DNA of 64,000 nucleotides from Yuukianura sp. NJ FZ-2021 (Eukaryota), in contig CM102287.1 of NCBI GenBank assembly GCA_046563655.1, positions 3,100,001 to 3,164,000 on the forward strand, read 5' to 3'. The position numbers and the translations under genes were made by a program. Each line of letters opens with the position of its first letter. The stretch's first letter is position 1. A model generated the notes under the pieces. The model ran no database searches and was not told where the DNA came from. It saw nothing but the letters and a program-made list of their open reading frames with translations. Positions 297-64,000 of the stretch are shown here, one piece after another.

Positions 297-1559
297 TTAA
301 TTACTTTTTCCTAACTTAAAATATTTATATGGTTTATACCCAAATAATTGGAAATCTCTTTTGTACTTAACATATAACTTTTTTATGTCGCTTAGCGTTA
401 GGTTATTAAAGTATTTGTTAACAATCCACCTCTGTCCGCTTCCAGTGCGATGTGACCAACCTAAATTTGGAGCGTCGATTCCCGCTGATTTGATTGGTCG
501 CTGAATTTGGTCTTGGAAGTGATCCAGCTTCACTACAAAGTCATACCGTGTTGCACATGGAGAACAAAGACGACTCATCGGCATCCAGTGCTCGTCAAAC
601 CTGTAACAAAATCAAGAAATTGACCTTTGACCTTTGACCTTTAAGAAATTGAACTTTGACATTAGATTTATTGCTCACCTTGAAATGGAAGTTTTTAGCA
701 AGTATGAAATGAATTCGGACCAAGTCGGAGCACGTGTCGAATTGAATTCTCGTGCTGGCAACATGAATTTTCCGTAATTTTCGTAGTAGTAGCCATTTCT
801 AAAATGAAAAGAAAAAAGTTTGACCTTTGACCCAGATTTCTTTTCTGCAAGTAAGAACTTTGACCTTTCATCCAGATTTCTCTTATGCAAGTAAAAATTT
901 TGACCTTTGACCTTGTTTTATTTTTGTACCTGAAGCGCATGTCACGCTCTTTGTCTTCCAACTTGTCTCTGTAGGCACTCACGAGTCGTTCGAAGGGGTC
1001 ACGTGACACCATGAACTTCGTTGTGGAGGTCAAAGTCAAAATGTTTAGTAAATTCTTCAAGGTCAACTTGGGATACTTCTCTCTCAGGATTTTGTGAACT
1101 TGAAAAGTAGAATTTGTGGAGTTGGTGGCGACAATGTCGCCATTTTCGTCTTCAGTGACGGCGACAACTCCAGCCAGACGCAGAAACAGTTTGGTCAAGG
1201 TCGTTGACCCCACTTTGGGCACTTTGCACCACAGAAGACCACGCCCACTGAAACTGTTGTTGTAGTGGTAGAAGTATGTTGGATTGATTCTAAAATTTCG
1301 AAATTTCAGCAAAATATAGATTATCCAAATTTTGAAATTTTGAAAATTTCGAGTTTTACCTCTCTCGAACTCTGTAGTTTTGGCAAAGTTTGAGCAAACG
1401 AGCACTGGAATTGTGGTACTGCTTTTGTGGAAAAAATTTAGAAATTTGTGAAATTTCTAAATTCTTGAAAATCAATTTATAGTTAAATCCAAGCAGAAAT
1501 CCAAGTCCAAACAACCAAAAAAGTACAAAGTACTTCATACTCCTTACAAAGTCCATCAC
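297..1559 (-). CDS. Carbohydrate sulfotransferase (Sulfotransfer_2 / CHST8-14-like), type II membrane protein; 4 exons: 1559-1360, 1289-930, 798-679, 600-297
   Basis: N-terminal TM (YFVLFWLFGLGFLLGF), 5'-PAPS motif WCKVPKVGSTT, 3'-PAPS motif SRDPFERLVSAYRDK, DEHWMP..LCSPC and C-terminal LYVKYKRDFQLFGY. GT-AG junctions join the ORF-track fragments in frame. Confidence 0.92.
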
Positions 1560-1859
1560 TACATGAATCTAACGGTTCAAAATTTCAAGAAAATTTCAAA
1601 ATTTGTAACTTTGTGTACTCAAAATTCGAAATTGCTCAATTAGCAACTAATTAACCCCGTTGCAAACTAACCTAAATGCCAACCAAATTTCAAAATTAGC
1701 TTTCAAATCCACTAAAAGTGAACAACAGTTAATTTTAAGTAGTCAATACCAAACTCATACTTAAATATACTTTAACTAAAGTTTATATATTATAATATAT
1801 TATATTATAATACCACATATTTCAATATGTTCATGATGTTGTTATCGGAACCTCCGGCT

Positions 1860-2798
1860 TCAATAAATTGTGGCCCGGTATGACGGAATATCTAAGGAAT
1901 AAAAGAAAAGCTGTAAATTTTTTTGCACAGATTCGTCAAAATTGTTCAGTTTTTGATAAATCTTTCGAAAATAGTTTGAAAATTTTCTGACACTGAAATT
2001 TTTTTGAAGTTACCTTGGATATTTTTTGGTTCCATTGCAATAGTAGTTCCAGGTAAAGAGGCCAATGTACTTTGTGATGAGAAAGTATACGGAGTTCGTA
2101 ATGCGTAATTTGGCAAATGTGAATCTGGGTCAGGATAGTTGAGCACCACAGGCTGATTTCTATACCGAGAAAAGCGTGGGAAAAATGACGCCCGTTGAAT
2201 CGCTCTTCCCACCATGCTTTCTAGAAAAATGAAAATTTGAAACCAAAATTTTGGAAAACCTTCAATTTTTGAAATTAAAATTTTGAAATTTCACCTTCTC
2301 TCCAATTGGTCAACTTGCGTCGCTTGCAGTGTTTCCAAGTGATGACCAGACAAACAATAAAGATGATCAGAAGCACAACGCTTCCGATGGAAATGAACAA
2401 AATGGCGGGAAATTCCAGGCCTTGGGCATTATCAGCTCTAAATAATATATAATTATTATAATGTAGAAACTAATTAATATATAAAATATAAAATGTAATA
2501 TATAAAGTGTACCCTCTTTGTGGTTGTCCTGGACGGAGAGTTGTGATTGGTCGAGAAGTTGTGGTCATGCGTGTAGGTTTTGTCGGAGATTCGGGATACG
2601 TCGGAGGCGGGGCTACGGAGTGGTGGTGGCTTCCATGATGGTAGTAATGGTAGTGGTAGGATTCAGTTTCTTCTATAGTCGTGCTAAAATTTTCAAAGAA
2701 ATGAACTTTTTTAAAAATTTTGATTTTTGATTCACCTTATTTCTGTTTTCAAAATACCTTTCCGTTTGCGTCGATTCCTTTGACGTATGCAGTCCCAT
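1860..2798 (-). CDS. Uncharacterised single-pass membrane protein, ~197 aa; exons 2798-2758, 2683-2513, 2437-2295, 2220-2014, 1891-1860
   Basis: Five GT-AG exons are phase-compatible (594 nt). The product has a His/Tyr-rich then Thr/Pro-rich N-terminus, TM AILFISIGSVVLLIIFIVCLVITW, basic stop-transfer KHCKRRK and a tail with LPNY and IPSY. The first exon is least certain. Confidence 0.6.
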
Positions 2799-30201: not shown

Positions 30202-30968
30202 TTTCCTCGCTTTGTTCAAATAAACAAATTTTTGTCAAATTTTTAGAAAAATTTTAATGCAGCACTTGGAAATCTCTCAAACATTTGAAAATTCTGTCCA
30301 AACTGTAACGAATCCGAACTCAAAAAAGCTCACTCTCACTTTTGTAACAACTGTAAAAGTTAAATTAATCTAATGACTGTACAATGTCAAAGGTCAAACT
30401 TTATCTATTGGAATAGCCACACTAACTTGACTAACTTATTTAAAAAATAGGTTAGTTTTTTTTTAAATCACTTGTGCAGCAAGATTTAGGTGACTTTAGT
30501 TTAGGCGTTGATAAGATGTTGTTCCGGTGCGAGAAAGAAAGCGAATGAGGGAGAAAATCTTGCAGTGGAGAAAATATGAACGTTTTCTCCCTCCAAACTT
30601 GGAAACTTTCTCCCCTTTACACCGTTACACCTTCCTGTTTTTGCAAATTCCACAAAACAGAAAATGTTGGCATAAAACTGTAGTTTACTAAGAATTACTC
30701 AGGCAAATAACTTTTAGAATTGAATTAAGCTAGGTAAGAGGTACTCTTGAATACTAAAGTTGCATAAATGTTTGTACAAATGTGAAAATTATCAGGAATT
30801 CTATAAGCAAAACCTATTTTGAGTGACTACGATAACTAAAAGCAGAAAAATATAGTAAAGGCATAGTACCTCGAAGAAGAAAGTTACAAATAATACTTTG
30901 TTACATAACATACTGGAAAATACTTGATGTTATAACGAAAACTTCTGAGAAGTGAAGCGATGCAGATA

Positions 30969-32129
30969 CTATTGTCGCTGTGTACGGGCGTTCTTGCGAC
31001 ATTGATGTTCGTGTTCCAACAAAGTACGGAAGCACATTGCGGCTTCTTGTACTGGCATACTGGCATACGAATTGATCAGTGCCTCCATGGATCCTTTCTT
31101 CAAGTTGCGAAAGAAGATGGCTTCAATAGCTTTGGCATTGATGGTGCTAAACAGTAAGGACGAAGTTGTTAACGTCGTTAAAGTTAACCCAAGTATTATA
31201 TTGATTACTTACCGAAGCATAGGCAAAAGCAAAAGGACATCAAGAATTCGACGACCTAATTGCTGACGAATCATTGCCCCAATAGGATTTGGAACTCCGA
31301 CAGGAATGCTGTACTTGTGCAGTTGGTCCAGTACGGCCTTATGAAAACTATTGACGATCGTAATAGTGTCCGGACCAAATTCGGCTACACGATCTGTAAC
31401 ATAAAAATACCAAATGTCTACTGTTGTTTCGTAATTAGAAGTTTAAGTTAACTTTTGTGGTCGTGAACGTTGGTTTACCGGAACTGGTTAGAGCCAACAG
31501 CTTCAAGGCTTCGTATTCATAGGTGTCCAGATTGAATTGTTGCAGAGTAAAACAAATCATTGTGAACTTGCTAATTAGTTCATCCAGCTTCGAACCTTTG
31601 CCTGGACCAAGAGCTTTCTCAACCTTCGAGCCGTAGCGGAACTGCGAGGAGCGCATGAGATGTTCAGCTGAGACGGAACTGTGGGAATATTCGGCAAATG
31701 AAACGATGAACAAATCACTCCAGGCGGAACCAATCAACGAAGTCTGGATGTCTGGTCTGAAAATGTCAAATCAAGTTCACGACTTTGTTTAAAAGTAATG
31801 AACGAAGTGGTAATCGATGTCCAACGTTACCTGAGTTGGCTAAGGGACGAAATGGCGCGTGTCCAGTGTACTGCGAATTGGAGGATGGTTATGCCTCCTG
31901 AGTTGACTGCTGCCATGTAGTCAGGTACGATGATAGCTACTGGCAACTGTGCCGCAACCAGTGGTGACATTGTTTCGTCCAAACCCGAACAATGTTGACC
32001 GGGACGCGGAGGCTGTGGACGAGGTGGACGAGCTTCGTTGTCATCACCATAAACTACCCGGCACATCCGTGTTTCGTCCGCTTCCACTTCTTCGACGAAT
32101 TCAACTTCCGAGTCTGACTCGATCTCCAT
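30969..32129 (-). CDS. Nuclear receptor ligand-binding-domain protein lacking a zinc-finger DBD (NR2E/NR2F-like LBD, NR0B-like architecture), 311 aa; exons 32129-31831, 31756-31479, 31393-31213, 31146-30969
   Basis: Four GT-AG exons total 936 nt in frame. H3-H5 signature AVHWTRAISSLSQLRPDIQTSLIGSAWSDLF, H8 LQQFNLDTYEYEALKLLAL, H10-H12 LLLLPMLRTINAKAIEAIFFRNL..SMEALINSY. Start context AAAAC-ATG with an in-frame TAA two codons upstream. Confidence 0.85.
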
Positions 32130-32804
32130 GTTTTACTATCGTCGTTACTTAATTGTTAATTACTAATTAATCAATTTAAACCGTAAGTTTGGTAAAAATC
32201 CGTGCCAACAGTTCTGACAAAAGTAACGGTGTCCGCAAATTACTCCAAAAAAAAGACCACACACGGTCTGTATCCGTCGAAATGCAAAAATAAAAAAATC
32301 CAAGACAAAGGAATTCGCAACTGCGCATGATTGGCGCAAAGATCGGCATCTGAACAGAACAAATGGTTTTTCTTTGTTTGTGGTTGACAAAAACAAAATG
32401 TAGATCCATTGTAACAGTAGGGTTTTGACGTAAACGGGGAAGCAAATTTTGAACATATCACGAGCCATCACGCTTTTGTTTTAATTTGTGTCGTTTAATT
32501 ACTTTGCAACACATTAGAAATTAAATAATATGTATTATATTTCTGTGAGATTGTACAACTTTTCAACACATTCTACATTACATTACTTTGTACATTGTAC
32601 TTTCCTGTACCGCACACTACGCTATATTCAACTTGCAATAAATTGTTGCAGTTGCATAATTTTTAAAATTAAACTGACATTGGCAATGGCAATAGTATCG
32701 TAAAACATTTGTAAACACTAAACAGCAATGGGTTAGTAATAAAACGGGTTGGCTTTTTATGTGGCAACAATAATGGAATGCCTGCCTCACTCCAACCAAA
32801 TCAA

Positions 32805-32895: not shown

Positions 32896-35724
32896 ACAGT
32901 GGGGTGGGACTGGGACAGGGACAGCGGCAACGGCAAGTATTTTTATCTTTGCGATGATCTTCGGACATTTACAATTACAAATGGAGTCCGTCATGGCAGC
33001 TTATCTACTGAACAGCAGCGGTGTCTCCCTCTCGACTCGAGGAGATGTCGAGAAGGACGATTAATCCAGTTCTACTTGAAGGAGTAAGTAAGTTACGGTA
33101 ATTCATTCGTTTTGCAACAATAATCGATGTAACATTTGTACTCCAGGTTTCAAGAATTTGGACCCTACGCTTGGAATTGACTGATCGATCATCCCTTATG
33201 TACAACGTTCTTTATCTAATGCATTCAAATCGAGGCCAAGGCCAATTCCTGTTTGTATGAAATGTGATCCTGAGACGGCAAATTTTGGGTATGACGTTAA
33301 TCGAATTCCCAACAGTTTGTAAAATATCGTTTTGATCTAGTCACGAGATGAACTAGAAAGATTCATTTCTACAGAAGGGAGTGTGTAGGGGGTGTCAATA
33401 GTTTGACATGGTGCCTAAATTATAGTCTTCCTCAAATTGAAGTTCGAACAGGACCATAATACTTTTCTGTGTTTTCAGCACAATGGAGAAACGAAAGTAG
33501 TTCATATTCTGAAGATCTTCCAGTGACAGTAATTGAGCTCAAATGTCCCGGACAGCATTTCTCATGCTTGGTTCAAGTACATCTACCTTCCTAATCTTCC
33601 ACAAGAACCAGTATGTTCCAAACCATTCAAGTCAATGGCTCAAAAGACCAAGAGTCCAAAATGCTCACTTGTCTCTGAATTCTTCTCAGGTTTGGGCCAT
33701 CCATTTTTGTTGATGTTGTTGAAGTGATGCTTGAAAAGTGTGGAGTTACTAGGGAAGGGGAGGATGCTGGATACGACTGGACCAAAATAATTCGAAATAT
33801 GGTCATGACATTTCCGTTGTGCTCCTAAACCTGAATGGAGGGGACTTGGGAGGTAAGTGAGCCACGAAATAGGCTACACGTCCAACGACTTTCTTCAATT
33901 CAGGACTTAAAACACAACAACATTGGGCAAAGGGCCCTCCAGCGCCTGCTGTCGTCATCGTCCACGGTTCTTGTAAAAATACTAAAGTTTTGCTGTTCTG
34001 TTTTCAGAAATTCGGGAAATCTGTCATCTTGAGGACGTTTTGGCCTAAAACCGTCCAGGATTGTCCAGAACTCTTGAACGGTAGAACTGATGGAGCCCTT
34101 GAAGGCCCCTTGCCCAAGTAAGTCGGAACAAGAGTTATAAAGTTATGAAGGAAAGCAAGGAATTGGAATTGTGAGGTGAAAGTTTCAGAGGAAAGTTTAA
34201 TGGAATGGAATGCCTAGAAATTGAGTATCTCTCCCCCTTACCACTTTTCCTTTATACTTCCCAAAAGGAAACCTCAACTGCTTTTTTCCTCAAAAAGTTT
34301 GAATTATTTTCTGGTTTCAGAAATGTAACAAAATTTTCTCTTGTAAAAAGGATTCAGTTTTTCGGAAAAGTTGGTCCAGAAGTTTTTTAGTTTTCAGTTT
34401 GCGGAAGAAGTTGCTTTAAAAAAAGTTTACTTTGCTGCGTAGAGTAATCTTTGGGAATCAAAAATAAAGTGACTGTCCACTACTTCCCTCCTTTCAAGTC
34501 ACGAGTTACTCCAGGAAACGATAAGAAAGGAAAGTGAATCCAGGAAATGGAGAAACCCAAAATGTGAATTCCTCTACTAAAACGTATTCTCACACTTTCG
34601 TAGATCTTGGATATCAAAACTGGAAATGAGTTTTCACTTCCAAGAAGTGAGCATTGGGAAATGCAAAAGTTTGAAAAGTTTGTTCTGAAAACCAAGAAAG
34701 GTCACGGGGTCACTGGCTCATAAGTATTGTCAAGCACTGTTTATAGAATTTATTGAATTTTACAAAAAACAATTTTTTTTGGTCATTCCTTCATTCCCAT
34801 TTTGATATTTTTGTTTACTTATTATAACATCTTTTTTTTTGCAGATTCTCTTCTCGTGACTTTAAATTGTGTTGCTCCGAATATCCAATCAGAAGTCGAC
34901 GAATCTGGTGGTGGCTGGCGTTTTTGTTTCCTAAACCAAAGAAATCTGGACACATAAGCAACACCTACCGGGAGCGATGCAGAGTCGAGCTAGCTCTGAT
35001 TTACCATCATTGTAACCGCCTAACCTCCAACGACTTTTGACGACCATTTTTCCGGAAGTTTGATCTTACCAGAACCAGCGTCTCCAATCTTACTAAAGGT
35101 CGCACCGCGAGCGTACTCCTGCAAAGACTTGACAAGGTTCGTGAGTATTTTAAAGTCTTACACTTATAGAAGTTTCTTGTACCTAACTTTGCATTAATTC
35201 AACCAGAAATGCTGATTCAGATTTGCGTCATCTCTACAAACACAAATCACAATTCGACTCTTAACCAAAACAAGCAGTCATCTGTGTAAAAGTGCCACTG
35301 ACTCTGTTGTTGCACTCCAAATACCAATACAGTAGGGGGAAGAATCCACAAAGGACAAAGAGAGGACACGGAACACAGCAGTTTCAAATCATAACACTCC
35401 ACTACTCCACAAAGAAACATTGTTAATTGAAGTTTCAAGATAAGTTTCAAGCATAATAAGCCACTTTCTGGACTTGGAAGGTCGTCTCTTCACTGTGGAC
35501 GTTCTCTAATGTGACCTTGGACTTTGCATTTTAAGTGCTCAATTGCAGCCTACTACGCTTGTTTGGAAATCAAAAACTGTCAGCTGATCTAAGGTAACAA
35601 TCACCATTCACCACTATCAATTTATACTTTTTAGAACAGAAATATATTTATTGATCAATCGATTAATGCTTGAAGTAAACAATTGATTTATGAACTAATA
35701 GTTACTTTGTCATTTCAGTACATC

Positions 35725-37856
35725 ATGGATAACGACAGAGGTCAAGGTGGTGCCAATCCGGATAGCCCTGAACCTGATGCTGAAAACAAAGTGGATACTG
35801 CCAATACTACTGGAAGTGAGGCTGATGCTGAGAACAAAGGCGATACTGCTGATACTACTGGAAGTGAGGAAAATCCTAGCGGCAAATCGTCAACAGCTGA
35901 TGAATCGAGTATCGAAGCCCTGAACTGGAGCGACTTTGAAGAAGACGAACTACAACTATCAGCCGCTGACGCTGCTTTATTGCAGAGCATTCACTCGGTT
36001 TTGTCAGATGACGGTGGAAGTGGAGCTGATGATGTGGTCAAGAACATGTCAGCTTCCGTTTCTTCCGATATCACAACAGTTCTGGCTGATGGTGTGGCAG
36101 ATGAGGATGAGTTTGAAGAAAACGACGTGGAAATTGAATTCGGCAGGGTTGACAGTGCTGAATTGATGGATACGCCGCCGACGAAATCAAATATAAATTT
36201 TGGCACCAAGAGGAAACGTGAAGAGAGTCCTGTCATGTGGAACACGTTACTCGTTCCACCAAGCTTTGCAAACAATGAGCCCATCAGCGGCGATTTATCT
36301 TCAAATGCAGCAGTCCTGGATGATGGTGTAAGTCACTCAACATTCTCAAGATTGATTAATCGTGCTAATTTCTTAGTTTATAAACTGTTATTTTTTTATA
36401 GCCAATATGGGCCAAAGGAAGCAAAAGATACAAATTCGAAGAGAATCGTCGTGTGAATCAAAAACTAACCTTCGGTGTTCTTCTTTCTGTCGTTCTTGCC
36501 TTGGGCCTTGGACTTGGGAATCTTGTGGCATACAATGAATGTGAAGCTGAGCATAAAGCTACAGAAGTACCCTGTCCAATGACATCTAAAGTCTCATCTC
36601 CTGGAATTATCACTCCAACACTTCCACCAATACTTCCAACTTCTGTAGAACCGGATGCTGCCAGGCCTTTGCCAGTTCCAGCATCATCGATTCCTCCAAG
36701 TACAACTACTGCCATTCCAGAAGTTACCATTCCAGCATCAGACCCAGTAAAACCAATGGTTGATCCCAAGTATTCTCAACATGCCGAAGAGCTTTCCAAA
36801 GTCCTCAAGATGCTGGACGAGTTGTCCAGGAAGATTGACCGATTTGAGAATACTACGAGACAGTTGAGCGGAATTGTGATGATGCGGGACGAAATTAAGA
36901 TTGAAGAGGATGATCCGCCGGTAAAGAAAACAAAGTTCACACAAGTACTGTCTGAGGTGATGATGGCCAAGAAAGTCAAGAAAGCATCGGAGGTCACCTC
37001 GGGCCAAGTCAAAACTTGGAGGGACAAGAAGGAAGAGGTGCTGGAGGATATTGCCGGAGCTGTGTTGGAGGCAATGCAAGCGGAGGAGGAACCGGAACAA
37101 AGTACCTTGCTGGAGAGTAGTCAAGTGTTTTCAGTAGATGAAGTCCATACACCACCACTGGAGGTCCAACAATTCCCACAGTCTTCATCAAAATCTGAAG
37201 ATTTTCTGGAAGTATCGTCAACTTTCGACGAACGTGACCTGCAGGATTCTGAAGATGATATTGTCAGTTCAGAGCCTGAAGAACTTTTCTCGGAACAGGA
37301 AGATCAGAATGCTGAAGACGATCAGCTGATCCGCAAACCGAAGTTGAAGCGTGAAACAGCGATTGATCTGGAAGACGAAGACTTGGAGTTGAAACTGGAA
37401 CCAGTACAGCAGAATCCTACAAATTTTGAGATTCCAGAGCACAAGTCCAGCAAGAAGACGAAAGAGGATTGGAAAAAAGAAAAGAATTTGGAAAAAGAGA
37501 AACGAAGGCTGGAAAAAGAGCAATTTCGAAAACAGAAGGAGCAGGGAAGAGAGCAATTTCGAAAACAGAAGGAGCAGGAAAAATTGGAACGGAAGAAAGC
37601 AAAATACGAAAATTCCAAGCACCACAAAAACCGAAACGATGAAGAGATGCTGTACAAGCAGAAGCAGAGGTCAGACAAGGTCGTAGCAAAATCAAACTCT
37701 GACTGGGTCACTGCTAGAGCACAGAATCGCGAATCGAGTCGGCGAGCTTCCGAAGAATACGACCGGAAACACAAGAATTGGCAGACGGAAAGAAGCCGGC
37801 TCCGTGAAGAGTTTCGAATTGTTTCGGCTATTACTAACAACAATAGAGAGATTTAG
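35725..37856 (+). CDS. Single-pass membrane protein, CCPG1/PBXIP1-like architecture, ~685 aa; exons 35725-36327, 36402-37856
   Basis: A 74-bp intron (gtaagt...tttatag) joins the 257-aa and 467-aa track ORFs in frame. Acidic disordered N-terminus, TM NQKLTFGVLLSVVLALGLGLG, coiled coil, K/E-rich region and two W-x3-R-x3-RE repeats (DWVTARAQNRE, NWQTERSRLRE). The family call rests on architecture only. Confidence 0.6.
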
Positions 37857-47095: not shown

Positions 47096-47622
47096 AAAAT
47101 TTTCCCGCCAAATTTAATTTTCCCGCCAAAATTTTCCCGCCAAATTTAATTTTCCCGCCAAAAGTTTCCCGCCAAATTTAATTTTCCCGCCAAAATTTTC
47201 CCGCCAAATTTAATTTTCCCGCCAAAAATTCCCGCCAAAATTTTCCCGCCAAAAATTCCCGCCAAAATTTTCCCGCCAAAAATTCCCGCCAAAATTTTCC
47301 CGCCAAATTTAATTTTCCCGCCAAAATTTTCCCGCCAAATTTAATTTTCCCGCCAAAAATTCCCGCCAAAATTTTCCCGCCAAAAATTCCCGCCAAAATT
47401 TTCCCGCCAAAAATTCCCGCCAAAATTTTCCCGCCAAAATTTTCCCGCCAAAATTTTCCCGCCAAATTTAATTTTCCCGCCAAAATTTTCCCGCCAAATT
47501 TAATTTTCCCGCCAAAAATTCCCGCCAAAATTTTCCCGCCAAAAATTCCCGCCAAAATTTTCCCGCCAAAATTTTCCCGCAATTCCCGCCAGAATTTAAA
47601 ATTCCCGCCAAATATTCCCGCT
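47096..47622 (+). repeat. Array of ~35 TT(T)CCCGCCAAA motifs (E2F-consensus-like), 13-18-bp spacing
   Basis: Hand count of TCCCGC(C) cores. It ends ~140 bp before the transposase ATG and has no counterpart at the right end. Confidence 0.93.
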
Positions 47623-47759
47623 AAAAACAAAAATATGTGTATGGTCGCTGACAAAAAGTCCGCATCAGGTGGCTATGGCAATATAAATATTAGTTCTAAA
47701 AGCAGGTAAAATAACCGCAAGTAACCCTTGCAAGCTAATGCCCCCATTTCTCAGGTAAA

Positions 47760-49142
47760 ATGAACGAGGACGAGGACGACGTTCTTATTGAACGCTTGGA
47801 CGATCTCTTGGTAGGTGGCAATTGCACCATATTTACCTTCAGCCAAACCATTGTAGACGAGGCCACTGCTTTTAAAGCTGCTGTTTGCTGGGGCCTTCTG
47901 CCAACTGAAATCAAATGCGATCGGCATCCGCACCGCAAATTAATGAAGATGTACACCCAGCAAAATAACAAGTTGGGGTTTGTGTGGCGGTGTCAAAGAA
48001 GACCGTGTTCCGGTAGGCGTTTATCCCCATTAGAAAACACATTCTTCGAGAAAAGCCGCCTCAGCTTTAAGGAAGTACTGTCCCTGATCGTTTGTTTCTT
48101 GCTTAAATTTACAGTGAAATTCACTGCTATGCATTGTGGGATTACGAGAAAGACAGTCGTGGAATTCTTTCACTTCTGTAGAGAAGTGTGCGAAGTAATC
48201 GATGCACACGACAGCAGACAGGTCGGAGGCCCTCGTGATGTAGTTGAAATAGACGAAACGCATCTGTTCACGAGAAAATATGGCAGGGGAAGGCAGCTCA
48301 AAAGACATGTTTGGGTGTTTGGAATGATGAGCCGATTCACCAAGAAAATAATCGTACGCCAGGTTGAGAATAGAACCCGAGCTACCTTAGACCCCATAAT
48401 TCAAGCTCATGTAGTTCCAGGATCTTGGATTATGAGCGACTATTGGCGAGCCTACCTGCGTTGCGATTATAGACTTGGAATGAGGGGCCATGCACGTGTC
48501 AACCACAAGAGGAGGTTTGTTGAAGGCACGGTAGACATTCCCCGTGTAAGTCCACGATTGGGGCGGGTTAGAATTGGCACAAATACTGTACGTGTCAAGG
48601 TGCACACCAATACCCTCGAAAGGCAATGGAGAGAAGTGAAGAAGGCAATTAGAAGTTGCAGAAGTGAAGAAAAGATTCCTTGGTATATTGGCGAGTACCT
48701 GTACCGCAAAAACTTCTTGAGCCAACACAAAGAGATGTTGGGCCCCATGCTAAGGCAATTCATGGACAGTATTATTAGAGTGTATCCTGGACCAGCTATG
48801 ATTGGCAGGGGAGTTAATGAGGCGATTTACAGATTCGCTTATACGCAATTTCCCATAAGACTTAAGGTGCATCGCGTCTATGACTGGTTAGGCGCTCAAA
48901 AAACTACGACCACACTTTTCGCATTAGCATACACTGCTCCACAACGCAAAACTTTGCGATCTGACGAAAACAGGACCCTTCGTCCAGAAAACATAGGTTT
49001 TCTGGAAGACGTTTCAGAAATCCTCGGATTTCTGCCTTCTTTTGCTTTTAACGGCGAAACAGTCGAAGATTCGTTAGATCGCAAACTTTTGCGATGTGGA
49101 GCAGCGTATGCTAATGCGAAAAGTGTGGTCGTAGCTTTTTGA
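47760..49142 (+). CDS. Merlin/ISXO2-like DDE transposase (460-aa ORF; last ~90 aa derive from a foldback)
   Basis: Zn-ribbon CDRH..WRCQRRPC, HTH-like region, VVEIDETHL, RKYGRGR..VWVFG, IMSDYWRAY, VNH, HTNTLERQW, YIGEYLYR, IIRVYP. Confidence 0.92.
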   Translation: MNEDEDDVLIERLDDLLVGGNCTIFTFSQTIVDEATAFKAAVCWGLLPTEIKCDRHPHRKLMKMYTQQNNKLGFVWRCQRRPCSGRRLSPLENTFFEKSRLSFKEVLSLIVCFLLKFTVKFTAMHCGITRKTVVEFFHFCREVCEVIDAHDSRQVGGPRDVVEIDETHLFTRKYGRGRQLKRHVWVFGMMSRFTKKIIVRQVENRTRATLDPIIQAHVVPGSWIMSDYWRAYLRCDYRLGMRGHARVNHKRRFVEGTVDIPRVSPRLGRVRIGTNTVRVKVHTNTLERQWREVKKAIRSCRSEEKIPWYIGEYLYRKNFLSQHKEMLGPMLRQFMDSIIRVYPGPAMIGRGVNEAIYRFAYTQFPIRLKVHRVYDWLGAQKTTTTLFALAYTAPQRKTLRSDENRTLRPENIGFLEDVSEILGFLPSFAFNGETVEDSLDRKLLRCGAAYANAKSVVVAF

Positions 49143-53500: not shown

Positions 53501-56500
53501 GGTCCATATATTTCGCATATTTTCGAAATACCGGAATCAGGAGCTGTATTTTCAGTTTTTCGGTTCTCTCGAAACATTTTTGATTTTTCACGTTTTTTGT
53601 TTTTGTTTCAGTTTGTGTATTTTTGGAGTTTTTGCAAATTGAGTTCCGAGTGTCCTTTGGTCGACTTATTGACGAATTGATTAACTTGTTTTGTTCTTTT
53701 TCCGCAAGTCCAGAGACAAAAAGTGTTACTTGTCATGTGACAAGTCGACATGTCAAATAACATTTTTACCAATAACTAAAACTCAATAACAAAAGCGAAA
53801 CAGATATAACATTTGACCTTTGCAAAGCATGCTTGACCTTTGACCTTGGAAGTTTCCTTGACCTTTGATTTTGTCCTTAGGTGTCCCATTGCCTCTGGAA
53901 TCCGAAACGACGAATTCGTCAAGCAGCCTTGGAGTGCCTAGCTGTCGTGGCCCACGTTCTGGGTCCTGGAATTGCAATGCCTTTTTTACGAGAATTAATT
54001 GAACAAAATAGGTAAACTAATACCAATAACTAATTGAATAAAATCCGTAATTGAGAACCTCAACTAATTTAATTGTGTTGTTGCAATTTTTTGTAGACCG
54101 ATGGATACTTCTGAGAATCCGAGCAGTGCTGTATCAGCCAGAGTATCGCGTCGACTCCTTCCGTCGGCATCTCCTATGGGTTTAATTGAATATGGACTGC
54201 CGCTTCCGTCAAAACAATTTTCAAAACAGAGTTTAGAACAACTGGAAACAGGAGGACTGGATCCGATTTTGTCCAAGTCGGACTATGGTCCAGACATCCT
54301 CTGGATTCTACATGGAGCAGATCAGTCCAAAATGAATTCTGCAAGGTACAACTTGACCTTTGACCTCTAAATTAATTCAACACAGCACTAAATTCTAAAT
54401 TCTCTTTTACTTTCAGATCAAGTCTCACTAGTCGAGATGGACCGAAGTCTTCTAAATCCAGTTCTGCAGTAAGCCGCTTTTTTTTTTAAATAAGAGAACA
54501 AATTTTTGGCGATTTTTTTTTTTTGATACCCGGCAGATTTAGTTAATTTTTTTTGAAAAATGGCAGAAACGGCTCATTCGATTTCTTTAAGAGTGTCAGA
54601 ACTGGCTATTTTTTTTTTTTTTTTTTGGAAAAGTGGCAGGATTGGCACATTATTTTTAGAAGTGGCAGAAAAAGTTTGAAAATGGTGGAAATTGGGTCAA
54701 TTTGAGGGCGGAACATTTCTCCCGGCGGAGAGTTTGACCTGAGCCTGACCTGGATTTTTGATAAGCCATTTTTGAAGAGTTTGAACATGCAAAGGAGGGA
54801 GAAAGTGGCTCAAATACTCCCTCTTTTCTTTCAGTTTCTCCACTTTTGAAAACAACTTTCCCTTGTTCAAATAGAACAACACTTGACATTTCCACTTCCA
54901 TTTCTCTCATTCTGTTTATAAGCAATAGTTTCCACTTTAACCTAATTCATGAAACACTTTCTCTTCTGTCAATAACAACGCGTGACTAGGGAATGCAAGT
55001 CCGGTCCACTTTTTTAAAGTCCGGACTTCGAACCTCGACGGACTTGAGTCCAAAAAGTCCGGACGCGTCCGGACTCGAACTCAATTTTCAAAGAATCCGA
55101 TTAATCAACTTATTTGTACGCCCGCCAGCAGTAATTAGAAGTCAGAAGGGTTTTTTAATACAGTTCAATTGTAAGCTAAAATATGTTAACAATCATGTAG
55201 CTGCAGGTAGGAGCGAAGAAACGATAAGTTGTCAAGACTTTCATCATTCAACTTAGACCTCACCTTACTGCATATGTACCCAGAAGATGAAAATACTCTT
55301 TCAGATTCGACGCTGGTTGGTGGTACCGACTTGAGGTAGCGATAGGCTAAGCTGAGATGTAAGCCTCGAACCGCTCCAGCTTTAAACATTGTCATTTCCT
55401 TTTTGATCGTCTGGAGTAAATTTGAATCAACTTGCGGTTTTTCTTTGTAAGCCGAATCTTCAACCGAACTGAGAACGCTGTTTAATTCGTTTTGAAGATC
55501 TGTCGGTCGCTGCTTCTTGGGAACAGGTTCCTCCAGAAGAATAATTTCAGGAGTTTCGTTTGCATTTTGAGTTTGGGGTACAACAGGAGAGCTACTACGA
55601 AGCCGCCTGAGAAGTTGCTCAATTTCTGTAGCAATTTTGGTTTTTGTAGGAGATTTAAACAAGTCTTCCAAATCGTTATCAAGCTTTCCGGAATGTAGAT
55701 ACTGCAGGATTCCAGATTGATCTGTTCTGCGTTGTGTGATCCGGTGTTTAAGTGCTTCGTACAGTTCTAGTGAGATTGGTGTGTTAGAGTCGTCGAGCTT
55801 TTCCAAACAAAAGTTTAAAGCTGCGTCAGCCGTTAGCAGCGTTGAATCTCTACGACAAAGTGTTTCGACAGTGACTTTTAGTGGTTGAAGAGCAGAAACC
55901 AAATCCTGTAGTCGGTCAAATTCCCAGCTTTCGAATACCGTAGTCGATTCCACATCAATTAGAGATTTCATGATCGACGTTTTTAAGAACGTAAACCTTT
56001 CAACCATGTCCAACAAACTGTTCCATCTAAATTTTACAAAAGAAGTCAGTTAATTTTGAAATGAAATGTATGAGACATATGCACACTGAGAATGTTCCCC
56101 AGTTGAACTAGCACTGTGTCTAAATTAATTTGAACCCAAAAAAATTTGAATTTTTTCTATATTTTATAACCTTGTTTTTGAGTCCAATATCAAAGATAGT
56201 TCCTTTTTCTGATCAGAAACCAAGTGACCCTTGAGGTTTTCGGATTTTAGTGGTGACCGTTTGTACATCTTCACTACTTTACGAACTTTGTCGATAAGTG
56301 GTTTGAAATGGACATGTTCCACTGACGCCTTAGTAAGAATTACAGAAGTTGCAAATCCAGAGTTTAATTCGTCCTCATCTTCACTGTCGTCTGAAGCTGA
56401 ATTTTCAATTAGAGCTGAATTTATGTTCCCGGTTTCATTCTCAACCTCGAGCACATTAGTCAACACTGAATTATTTTTTGGGTAGAGCACGTCGGTAACT

Positions 56501-59500
56501 GCGAGCTGAATTGCATGTGCAAAGCATTGCTGGTGAATGGTAGGAGACAGTTTTCCGGCGCAAGTCATGACTGAGGCTCCGTCACTTAGAACAGCTACAA
56601 CATCATTTTCTAGTGAAATTTCAAACTGCATAAGCCGTTCTTCCAAACGTTCAATTAGTTTTCGAGCTGTAAGTGAGCCTTTGATTGGAACTAATCCTAA
56701 GTTCCACAGATCTTCCCGGTTCTGATCACAAACAACTGTCACGTTTAAGTACCTTCGAGGTCGTGACGAAGTCCATTCATCTAGAATAACGGAGAACTTG
56801 GAACCGGACGACTTGAGCTTCAGTAGTTTCAATTTCTGTTCTTCCTTTACTGATTTGGCATAATTCATCACCATTTCGCGAATTGTATGAGGTGATTTGG
56901 GTAACGGGTCGTCCCTGCATGCAGTTGTAATCATCCGTCGTAAGTCAGTAGATGTACAAAATACCGCGAACGGAATCCCATCTTTTGCAGCCATCCGACC
57001 CACAATTCGCGAGATTCCGCCATATTTTTTTAGAAATTGGGTAATCCGCCGCTGCTCCGGAACTAGAATGAGATTCATTCCACTTATATTTCTCAATCTT
57101 ATGTTTTGTTCCAATTTACTTATTAATCGCTAACCTGTATCAGTTGATTTGTGCTCCTGTGCAGTTGATTCTAATTGTGATGGCGTAGCGACAACAATGT
57201 TATGAATCTGTTTCAAATGCCGATGTAAAGTAGAAGTGGACCCTCCATGATTTAGAACTTTGGTACACAATATGCATTTAGCCTGTCTTCCTGTGGTTGC
57301 CTCACGCAGAAAATGCTTCCAAAGTTGATTGTCGGGTTTAAAAGCTTCGAATCTGGTTCCCATTGTTTATACTTTTAACTTTAATTTTAATTTTCGAAAA
57401 GAATTGGGATTGGGACGTAGGTCATGCTGTCTCTAAACAACACGCTCGCCCATAGTAAGTTAAAGTACAAAGAATCTCTCACAAACAAGAATTTGAAAGT
57501 TGGGTTCCCACACTTTTTATTTTCACTATCTTGTCTCAAAGTCACAAGATCCTATTCGCATCATTTTTTAACCTTCAGTCCGGACTCCAGTTCTAATAAA
57601 GTCCGGTTTCGGACCCAAAACTCAGTGTAAAAAGTCCGGACCTGTTCGGACTTGAAGTCCGGACTTGCATTCCCTACGCGTGACTACTTTTTCAAAGTTT
57701 TTCATAAACAGGTTTTAGGCCAGAGTCATTTTTGAAAAAGTTTGGAGAAGCAATAATTTTGAATGCAAGGTCGCTCATTTTTAGAAAAACCGAAGAAACA
57801 AATTTCAAATTCCCGAGTTTTTACGTTTTCGGGTTAATTTTCCGGAAATTATTTCTTCAGGTCATTGCACTGTACGCGAAAAAACTTCTTTTCAAAAGAT
57901 AAAATCTGTATCCATTTTTCGAAAAACGGGATAATTTTTGTCACACTTTTCGAAAAAGTGTTTTGGGACTTTGGGGGAGCGAGAGATCGATTTTGTTATA
58001 AAAACTAGAAATTGTTAGAATTGCATGGAAAATTTCCGGTCATTCATCTTTTTTTGTAAGAATCAATACGAGAGACGAGGATTTTTTGGCAATTACTACA
58101 AAAAAAAAATGTGGAAATGTTAAATTGATTGGCAAAATGTGAAAATTTGATAAGTCCATCTCTCGTTTTTCGTCTTTTTTTTTAATTCTTAAAAATTGGA
58201 GTTTTTAGTTTAATTTAAAGTGAAAGACGAAAGTTCGTACCCACAAACTTTGTTTTGAATTTTCCAGGTTCGTGTGGGACGAGTTGAAATTCAGGAACAA
58301 CATGGAGAAAGTAAAAACAAAATTTTTTAAATAATTCAGTTTTTTTATGACCTTTCGTTTTCAAAAAGTCAGTCGTCATAACTTTTGTTTGTTTAGTTTT
58401 TAATTACCAGTTACTTCTTTAAACTGCATGTTATGTTCTTACGACCACTTACTTATGTACGATGTTTCATGTGCTTTGAAAAACTTTTCAAAACAAGTCT
58501 TTTGACATTGCCTTTTCTAAAAATTTGTTCTAAAATGTATACCACTTTGGTAGTTTTGAGACAGAAGCATCGTGAGTGCTTGGCATTCGTGGAGGAAGAA
58601 ACAATGAAAGAAAAAGTGGAATTCCGGGACGATTTGGGAGAAACATACGACGACGATTTGAATTCGAACAGCATCGCCGTGAAAACGACACCGCGGGACC
58701 GTGACTCCGGAGTCAGCAGTCTCAAAAGTGTTAGAGTGAGTTATTAAAAACAAATTTTTCAAAAAAAGTACACATTTTTATCAAAAATCAAAAACTTTGT
58801 TGTGCCTTCTAGATTGCGTCACCAACTGAAAGCATTTCCTCTTCCAAGAGTCTTGTGCCGGATGAGGGCGGGCCAGCAGGCGGGCCGTTTTCGTCTCCAC
58901 CGTCGACGGGCCAAAGTGACGACCTCGACGACCCCTTCGTCATTCGACGGCCCGTCATGGCCCGCTCCTCTCGTCCGTCTATCACTTCTCTAACGAGTCA
59001 AACAGGCAGAGTGCAACACAGCCCGCCGTTGACACCGCGGAGGTCAGAAAGTCCACCGTTGACACCGCGGAGAGCAGACAGTCTGCCGCTGACACCGCGG
59101 AGGACTGGGGACGAAGAAAACCGCGGCGGTGGGGATGAAGCTCACGTGATGAGCCCAATGACGGAACAAGCTCATTGGCTCAAGAAATCCTGCCCCACCA
59201 AAATCCCACCGAGGAAGTCCAAGTCGAAGCCACGCGATGGTGGGGCCACGGGACGATTGGTCCCGCCTCTAAAAAGTCCCCATGACTCTCTTCCGCCGAA
59301 AACATCAAGATCGAACGATTCACCTAAACATTTGTTGGCACAGGCGCTTACGCAGCTCAACTCTCCAGAATGGTAATTTCATAAAAAAAAATTTCAAAAT
59401 TTTGACTTTTAATTTTGAAACTTTTTTTTTGTTAACGTTAGGGAAGTTACTGTAGATGGATTTGGAATGTTGACGCGACTGCTGCGAACGCATCCAGAAT

Positions 59501-61474: not shown

Positions 61475-64000
61475 ATGGATCCTTGGATAGTGACTCCAGT
61501 TGAGCGTGCAAGGCATGCAGAACAGTTCAAAAGCCTTGGACCGATTGGTGGATTCGTCACTGGAGAACAAGCTAAAGGATTCTTACTTCAATCCCAGTTA
61601 CCGCCTGCAATCTTAGGGCAAATATGGTAATTTAAAGCTATGATAAAACGTTTTCTAGAGATTTCGATTTCAGTTTTTAAGTTTTCGTTTTTGATTGTCC
61701 TTTGTAGGGGTCTCGCCGATATGAATTGTGATGGTAAAATGGATATCAACGAATTCAGTGTTGCCTGTAAGTTGATCACAATGAAACTCAAAGGGTTTGA
61801 AGTTCCACCAGCCTTGCCGCCGACTTTGAAAAACGTACTTTCCGGAACCGGCTCCAACACAACTCCAGTTCTATCTCCAACGAATACCGGAATCATGTCA
61901 CCAGTTCAGCAGATGATGCCGATTAGACCAATTGTTCCAGTAGTGCCTCAGTCATCGTCGGGAGTTCCTTTGGCAGGGGCTGGAATGATGCTGGGAGGCA
62001 GTACTCCGCCGCTCATGCCCAGCACAGTTCCTCAGATCCCTCAGCAAGTCATGATGGCGGCTACTACCGGCATGTACTCTTCCGCTATGCCTACCGCACC
62101 ACACCCTACAACGTTACCACTCGGTTACGATCCTAATGGTAAGCGTTAAAGCGTTTAGAACAAAACGATTTGAAAAACAAACGTTCTAGAAACGTCAACT
62201 AAAGCGGAAAACGTTCTCATAATTTTAGCAATGATGCAGCCACAACAGCCGACAATAGCTCAAGTTCAAGGAATTCCATCAATTCCAAGTCAGAGTCGGT
62301 CGATGTCAATTACTAGTCAAGAATCAGTGTAAGTGGATCCTTATTCTCACCACCGTAACCACTCTCTATTGTCTCTATGTATAACCACCGTAACCACTTT
62401 CTGTGTATAACCACCGTAACCACTTTTTGTATGTTTTTAGCGTGTCGCCACTCATGGAATGGGCGGTTCCAAATCCTTCACGTCTCAAATATACGCAATT
62501 GTTCAATCAAAACGATCGATCAAAGTCTGGGTTTCTCTCGGGAGTGCAAGCTAGAAATATTTTAATGGGAACGCAGCTACCGCAGCAAATTTTAGCAACA
62601 GTTTGGGCCCTATCTGACTTGGATGCTGACGGACGTCTCTCCTGTGAAGAGTTCATTCTGTCAATGCACTTGTGTGATGTAGCTCGGCAGGTTGGTCAAA
62701 ATTCGTCATTTTCAAGAAAGTTCTAAGAACATTCAAACTCATAACAAAGTCTTTATGTTTTAGACTGGGCGTTTACCACCTAAACTTCCTGCAGAACTGA
62801 TTCCGCCTTCTTTCCGTTCCGGCGGAAGTAGAAAGCAGTCAATAAAAAGTGGAACTGGTTCTATTGTTCAAAGTGGACACAACACAGGGTCCAACACGCC
62901 CACTTCCATGATTGAGCCGGAGCCTCTACTTTCTCCAGGTAACCAAAAAAACGGAATTTATACTCATTTTTTCATAAACTTTGATTCTTTGTGTTGAAAA
63001 TGTTTTTTTTTGTACAAAGGTGGAACTTCATTTGAAGACAAACGAAAAATGAACTACGACAAAGGTCAAGCCGAACTTGATCGACGTAGAAGAGTTCTCG
63101 AAGAAATTGCTGCTCGTGAACGTGAAGAGCGCGAAAGAAAAGAGCGTGAAGAATTTGAGAAACGTGAGAAACAGAGGTAAAATTGGTTCAAGATTTTTCA
63201 GTTTTGAGTTTGTTTTGATAATTTTTTAAATATTTTTGAAAGATTGGAGCAAGAGAGAAGAAAACAAGAGGAAATTGAGCGTCAGATGGCAATGCAACGA
63301 GAAATGGAAGAGCGGAGGATAGAAGAACTACGAAAAGCAGAGGAGCAGAAAGAAGCCGCTAGAAAGGAAATGGAGCGACAGCGGAGGCTGGAAATGGAAG
63401 AAAATAAGCGCTTGGAGCTACTCGCTCGGAGACAAAAAGAGCAGGACGAAGTGCTGCGTCTCAAGGGTGTCAATCATGGACTTGGACTAGAGTTGTCACA
63501 ATTGGTAATTAACTAATTAGTTGTTAATCATGATTAATCAAACACCTTAATCAATGATTAATCTGACTTGTTCTGTGATTTAGACCGAGAAGGTGAAAGA
63601 CTTGTCTGGAAAAATAACGGAGACGCGTGTGGGTGTGTCTACAGTCAAATCAGAGATTGATGGAATGCGAGCCAAACGGGATGGATTTATGAGTGAAAGT
63701 GGATCGCTAAAGAATCAACTCAAAGAACAAAATGCAAGGATGTTGCATGCTGCTCAAGAGAAAACACGACTTGAGCGACTTGCTACCGAAAGTGAAGTGA
63801 AACAGATAAGTCTGAAACAACTTCGTGAAAAGTTGCAGAATTTGAAAGAGGAAGTGAGTTATCATAATCAAAAAGTCATTTTTTTTTCAGTGAAACTCAT
63901 TTGATTTGAACTCTTTTTGTTCGTTTTAGCTCGCAAAGAAGCAGGGCGATGCGGATGTTGCTGTTGGTGAATTGAATGAACTGAAATCCACTTTATCCAC
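61475..64000 (+). CDS. Dap160: Intersectin / Dap160, 5' part (two EH domains and coiled coil), runs off the window end
   Basis: EH1 [51 protein letters not shown]2 [76 protein letters not shown]-type coiled coil. Probable 5'UTR donor near 61051. Confidence 0.93.
62349..62427. repeat. Short intronic tandem repeat (ACCACCGTAACCACT x3)
   Basis: Three copies, the last two with a 26-bp period, in an intersectin intron. Confidence 0.8.

Follow-up and report, generated by a model that had tools for sequence, protein, structure and literature searches.

The 64-kb stretch of DNA analysed here (hereafter the window) carries on its minus strand a four-exon gene, probably from an arthropod, the predicted product of which has a core resembling the ligand-binding domain (LBD) of nuclear receptors. 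A divergently oriented gene and an alpha-mannosidase gene lie upstream of it. The features on which the argument is built are as follows.

32129-31831, minus strand: exon 1 (299 nt), starting at the ATG and encoding an acidic/Pro-rich leader, then the presumed H1-H3 by position
31830-31757, minus strand: intron 1 (74 nt, GT..AG, GC 0.35)
31756-31479, minus strand: exon 2 (278 nt), encoding the LBD-like part, about H4-H8
31478-31394, minus strand: intron 2 (85 nt, GT..AG, GC 0.32)
31393-31213, minus strand: exon 3 (181 nt), with the C-terminal motif LLLLPMLR
31212-31147, minus strand: intron 3 (66 nt, GT..AG, GC 0.32)
31146-30969, minus strand: exon 4 (178 nt), encoding the presumed H11-H12 by position and a tail of about 25 residues, and ending in TAG
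32130-32135, minus strand: the hexamer ahead of the ATG, consisting of an in-frame TAA (-6 to -4) and then AAC, with TAG next upstream
33787-33884, plus strand: conserved block, 74% identical over 98 nt (blastn) to the metagenome contig L001, with GAG/GTAAGTG at 33850-33859
35674-37856, plus strand: large exons of the divergent neighbour gene, with open pieces of 260 and 484 aa
40.5-45.7 kb, minus strand: complete, multi-exon GH38 alpha-mannosidase gene (Glyco_hydro_38N, Alpha-mann_mid and Glyco_hydro_38C)

Joined by three GT-AG introns, the four minus-strand exons amount to 936 nt, giving 311 aa plus a stop codon, from the ATG at 32129-32127 to the TAG at 30971-30969. The donors of exons 1, 2 and 3 read AG/GTAACG, CG/GTAAAC and CG/GTAAGT (the slash marking the exon boundary) and the acceptors, in order, TTTTCAG/A, GTTACAG/A and TGTTTAG/C, with intron 1 placed just ahead of D-I-Q-T-S-L-I in the LBD signature region. 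The first-pass annotation of this DNA had proposed four in-frame exons encoding 311 aa and visible only as fragments among the listed open reading frames (ORFs). The coordinates, splice sites and length were all reproduced in our analysis, and the fragments correspond to four ORF pieces of 101, 111, 77 and 79 aa. The ATG stands in the context AAAAC-ATG, the in-frame TAA that had been reported 6 nt ahead of it is present, and the GC content changes abruptly at the start codon, being 0.33 over the preceding 117 nt and 0.52 over the 117 nt with which the coding sequence (CDS) opens. Given the in-frame TAA and TAG ahead of the ATG and this GC step, the coding region begins at 32129. Any exon further upstream would contribute protein only if spliced into exon 1.

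The stop-free frame of 311 codons is not a product of chance. A random sequence composed like the CDS should contain 14.7 stops over 311 codons, the probability of finding none being 3e-7, and shuffling never gave a stop-free frame (0/200,000). The GC content of exons 1 to 4 is 0.53, 0.47, 0.45 and 0.47, as against 0.32-0.35 for the introns, and the values of 0.56/0.40/0.49 for GC1/2/3 of the CDS represent a coding-like composition. The gene had been described as intact, and we indeed found no stop inside the frame and all six splice dinucleotides in place. Deep divergence without a stop, a frameshift or a lost splice site suggests that the coding capacity has been under selection.

The divergent neighbour gene encodes an acidic, K/E-rich product that matches no Pfam family, is fast-evolving and has no assigned function. 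The best database relative of its ORF at 36402-37856 is 40% identical, the others being 30-40% identical. This best relative (P0003) leads to two metagenome contigs, L001 and L002, both syntenic with the window over 35.8-45.7 kb, and the alpha-mannosidase exons are 60-90% identical (protein) to both of them. The conserved block at 33787-33884 is probably a non-coding first exon, with its donor, of the divergent plus-strand gene, a reading that would leave an upstream region of about 1.7 kb shared between the two divergent genes. A second non-coding block, at 34191-34231, is 93% identical to L001 over 41 nt and is unexplained. These conserved non-coding blocks stand out, the neighbour protein being only 40% identical between the same pair. 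On L002, the more distantly related of the two contigs, Cys-rich open frames (1494-2223, plus strand) occur within 3.5 kb on the upstream side of the neighbour gene; they have no counterpart in the window, so that gene content on that side of the neighbour is not conserved. Neither contig reaches as far as the receptor-like gene, the first base of L001 corresponding to about 33.05 kb in the window, and a tblastn search of them with the 311-aa model returned chance rows only (E 0.5 or worse).

Protein databases were searched with exon 2. Among 5.8 billion clustered proteins, 186 candidates were scored and none reached E<=0.01, and a narrower search for near relatives gave 2 candidates, neither of which passed. 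The 1.84 billion representatives yielded 2 matches, both rejected as long repetitive proteins with 8-9 summed stretches. No relative of exon 2 occurred in contigs of viral or prokaryote genomes, and no second copy of the gene was found within the 64-kb window. Because the best relative of the neighbour is only 40% identical, the databases are without close relatives of this species, and blank searches for the receptor-like gene are thus weak evidence of absence.

These blanks would fit a relic: an open frame left over from a partial receptor-gene copy that is unexpressed or has died recently. No orthologue or paralogue was found in the protein databases or in the window, and three of the four exons are without detectable family likeness (see below). 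Moreover, the 369 nt 3' of the stop contain no canonical poly(A) signal (AATAAA/ATTAAA), and the promoter scan found no TATA box and no nearby Inr, the nearest Inr match lying about 550 nt or more upstream of the ATG. However, a neutral copy as diverged as this one should carry about 15 stops and we observed 0, the splice dinucleotides are all retained (6/6), the composition changes sharply at the exon/intron boundaries and at the ATG, and the lack of an orthologue weighs little when the best database relative of the neighbour is itself so distant. We therefore consider a relic unlikely. Capture of the gene by a transposon was rejected, as no terminal repeats flank it and the flanks hold only A/T-rich low-complexity repeats. 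A single Rfam row in the 30-36 kb region, MIR2606, was also rejected (27.9 bits, the gathering score being 139.7).

Strict patterns for either C4 finger or the P-box gave 0 matches in the six frames of the 64-kb window. Loose finger patterns matched twice (plus strand 30295-30354, and 5624-5559), with stops in context and no P-box, and these matches are distant from the gene or on its other flank. The zinc-finger family PF00105 was detected by Pfam in 0 of 86 upstream minus-strand ORFs; these were drawn from 413 upstream ORFs and comprise all those of at least 25 aa between 32130 and 36000, together with upstream ORFs having at least 4 Cys. The 311-aa product itself contains only 5 Cys. The first-pass annotation had stated that the product has no C4 zinc finger and that no zinc-finger exon lies upstream, and both statements are borne out, the second across 32 kb. 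The short acidic/Pro-rich leader that it had placed ahead of the LBD is likewise found, at about residues 1-45 and with a pI of 4.15. The leader contains no LxxLL motif, the only one in the whole product being LDVLL at residue 243, within what is presumed to be helix 10, and the product shows no basic cluster of NLS type.

Another explanation could be that a larger canonical receptor gene (e.g. HR78) has its finger exons beyond the window, and that the four exons described here form its 3' part or an LBD-only isoform made from an alternative promoter. Canonical insect receptors do have LBD-only isoforms, as reported for Drosophila HR3(LBD) (PMC13199448), and the best match of the receptor-like gene falls in the TR4/HR78 branch. 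In addition, the best internal AG of exon 1 would give an exon start at 32012 in phase 0, a weak acceptor candidate. However, the tract of this candidate is C-rich, whereas all three real acceptors have T-rich ones, and the 39 codons ahead of it are open, have a GC of 0.52 and begin with ATG after in-frame stops. The 32 kb upstream hold no zinc finger, and since the neighbour gene and the same-strand alpha-mannosidase gene are both syntenic, any zinc-finger exon would be separated from this locus by two conserved genes, which splicing would need to skip. A canonical receptor should also have found a match among the 1.84 billion representatives and none was obtained, although this argument is weakened by the 92-aa query. 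A larger gene of this kind appears to us distinctly improbable.

Exon 2 (about H4-H8) is the only part of the product that is statistically LBD-like. In a phmmer search of the PDB with a cut-off of E<=10, its 92 aa matched human TR4/NR2C2 chains, 3p0u_A (E 0.0043) and 7xva_A (E 0.0044), which were the only distinct sequences matched (2/2). Residues 2-90 of exon 2 align in register to residues 66-154 of the 249 of 3p0u_A, with no long gap and a score of 20.9 bits over 89 of the 92 residues. In the ESM Atlas, 21 of the 30 matches of exon 2 fell in PF00104-bearing clusters, mostly from arthropods, and the best score was 0.95, with 200 of 256 features in common, a score that shuffled proteins reach about once in 100. 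Together, the TR4 and ESM Atlas matches uphold, for this intact and intron-bearing gene, the earlier claim of a nuclear-receptor LBD-like core. The predicted fold of the exon 2 fragment comprises six helices at low confidence (pLDDT 65.7). A Foldseek search of the PDB with this model returned 7 rows at E>6, with 0 receptors and 0 rows at E<=0.001; coming from a low-confidence fragment model, this blank carries little weight and was dismissed as a fragment artefact.

As for the remainder of the domain, the TR4 register requires about 65 LBD residues ahead of exon 2 and about 95 behind it. Of the 99 residues that exon 1 supplies, about 45 belong to the leader, and exons 3 and 4 supply about 119, lengths that fit the remaining LBD. 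By eye, we take the end of exon 1 (W-T-R...L..L) to recall helix 3 of NR2 receptors, and the LLLLPMLR that ends exon 3 presumably recalls their helix 10. Nevertheless, none of the four single exons matched any Pfam family at E<=10, PF00104 included (0/4), and the read-through of exon 3, intron 3 and exon 4 (with X at its single stop) gave 0 matches in Pfam and 0 in the PDB. No receptor was matched in the PDB by exons 1, 3 and 4, nor by the sub-pieces covering residues 45-99 of exon 1 and residues 1-32 of exon 4. In the ESM Atlas, exon 3 was not recognised as a receptor, its matches being bacterial hypothetical proteins with a best score of 0.85, which we set aside as uninformative. By comparison, the single-exon Pfam search recognised the neighbouring alpha-mannosidase gene in 8 of 16 pieces, indicating that the receptor-like gene is far more divergent from its own family than this neighbour is from GH38. 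Of the full H3-H12 LBD signature described in the first-pass annotation, the part carried by exon 2 (about H4-H8) has statistical support, and the parts assigned to exons 1, 3 and 4 gave 0 receptor matches in Pfam and the PDB. The core is LBD-like with support and a complete H3-H12 domain is plausible, judged by length and by motifs read by eye; we infer that exons 1, 3 and 4 would complete the predicted LBD fold. That the product has no receptor domain and is an unrelated helical protein, exon 2 of which resembles TR4 by chance, is very unlikely: PF00104 was never matched by single exons or by the exon 3-4 read-through, the TR4 score is low and Foldseek returned no receptor, but two methods agree, phmmer at E 0.004 over 89 residues in register without large gaps and the ESM Atlas through language-model features at a score rarely attained by shuffled proteins, and the Foldseek blank has little weight at the pLDDT of the fragment.

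The nearest match suggests an NR2 origin on the NR2C/D side and not on that of NR2E/F or NR0B, TR4 being the only PDB match, at about 21 bits on one exon. The derivation from NR2E/NR2F favoured earlier is therefore not supported, TR4/NR2C2 being the only solved receptor that exon 2 matched. NR2E/NR2F chains, which presumably exist in the PDB searched as do NR0B chains, are absent from the matches of any exon at E<=10. TR2/TR4 (NR2C) and HR78 (NR2D) offer the only statistically supported likeness (exon 2 to the TR4 LBD, E 0.004), but they are full receptors with a conserved zinc finger, whereas this product is predicted to be without one. HR78/NR2D is given as the arthropod counterpart of TR4 in PMC2774871.

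In build, the predicted product is comparable to the NR0B proteins (DAX-1/NR0B1, SHP/NR0B2 and the spiralian orthologue), which also consist of a receptor LBD without a C4 zinc finger; with no finger in either, any action must go through other proteins. NR0B proteins dock on their partners via LxxLL-type boxes, whereas the leader of this product has none, and its sole LxxLL lies buried within presumed helix 10, so that the SHP/DAX1 route is unlikely to be copied exactly. NR0B also differs by the lack of sequence affinity, exon 2 matching only TR4 at E<=10. Judged from its sequence, the receptor-like gene resembles NR0B in build and is not a member of it. NR0B is known in vertebrates and spiralians and is reported to have been lost from arthropods and nematodes (PMC13012086), and another report states that it was not found in Daphnia pulex (PMC2774871). 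Because of this reported loss (PMC13012086), an NR0B-like architecture would here be independently evolved, which agrees with the possibility of independent evolution raised in the first-pass annotation.

Two other known systems can be compared. Like this product, Drosophila HR3(LBD) is an LBD without a DNA-binding domain, and this LBD-only isoform is reported to act without DNA binding via TOR signalling (PMC13199448). However, it is one of the products of a canonical NR1F gene, a full-length receptor being another, whereas no finger exon occurs here within 32 kb, and it belongs to NR1F while the likeness here is to NR2C. The NR0A proteins (knirps, knirps-like and eagle) are likewise atypical arthropod receptors without one hallmark domain, but they keep the opposite half, with a retained zinc finger and a missing LBD (PMC2774871).

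The reading that we favour, with a probability of roughly 55%, is that the gene stands alone, encodes an LBD-only receptor-like protein, derives from NR2 and is evolving fast. It would most likely have arisen when an NR2-group receptor was partly duplicated or truncated at the DNA level, and have evolved fast since then. The product would consist of the short acidic/Pro-rich leader and a very divergent LBD, with no DNA-binding domain, and, having neither a zinc finger nor a basic NLS-like cluster, it would be unable to read DNA itself. If active, it would work through protein contacts, and its NR2-type core would make dimerisation of its LBD with that of a full-length NR2 partner (HR78, USP or SVP) the likeliest of these. 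A dimer short of one DNA-binding domain could leave the partner damped or redirected, a dominant-negative or modulating effect the outcome of which would resemble that of SHP/DAX1 by a different route. We infer this dominant-negative role, as we do the transcription, dimerisation and repressive effect of the predicted product. A role outside the nucleus, comparable to that outlined for Drosophila HR3(LBD) (PMC13199448), is also possible, as the product shows no NLS-like cluster. Tentatively, and with clearly less confidence than in the stand-alone gene itself, one may picture a lineage-restricted, LBD-only receptor re-invented from the HR78/TR4 (NR2C/D) branch in an NR0B-less arthropod lineage, pairing with HR78, USP and SVP to tune hormone-dependent transcription, or acting outside the nucleus like HR3(LBD).

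An LBD-only receptor gene would be unusual for an arthropod. The DNA-binding-free insect form that we found in the literature, HR3(LBD), is presented as an isoform of a canonical gene (PMC13199448). At the level of titles and abstract beginnings, and with subscription journals outside the coverage, the literature gave no description of a stand-alone LBD-only insect receptor gene. If the favoured reading is true, a separate gene of this build would represent convergent evolution of a receptor 'decoy' and would provide a new handle on HR78/USP-type signalling; once confirmed, it would be a notable convergent re-invention of an LBD-only receptor.

Further features were observed elsewhere in the window. 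Beyond the alpha-mannosidase gene, an intact 467-aa frame (47739-49142, plus strand) carries an ISXO2-like (IS1595-type DDE) transposase domain (E 7e-15), and a 530-nt tandem repeat is located just before it, at 47178-47709. Two adjacent minus-strand frames of 321 and 287 aa (55186-57129), with DUF659 and a hAT C-terminal dimerisation domain, look like a hAT-type transposase that is split or intron-bearing. Finally, at the left end of the window lies a Sulfotransfer_2 (carbohydrate sulfotransferase-type) exon (695-1456, minus strand), and at the right end are EH-domain/EF-hand exons of an Eps15/intersectin-like gene (61631-62726, plus strand).
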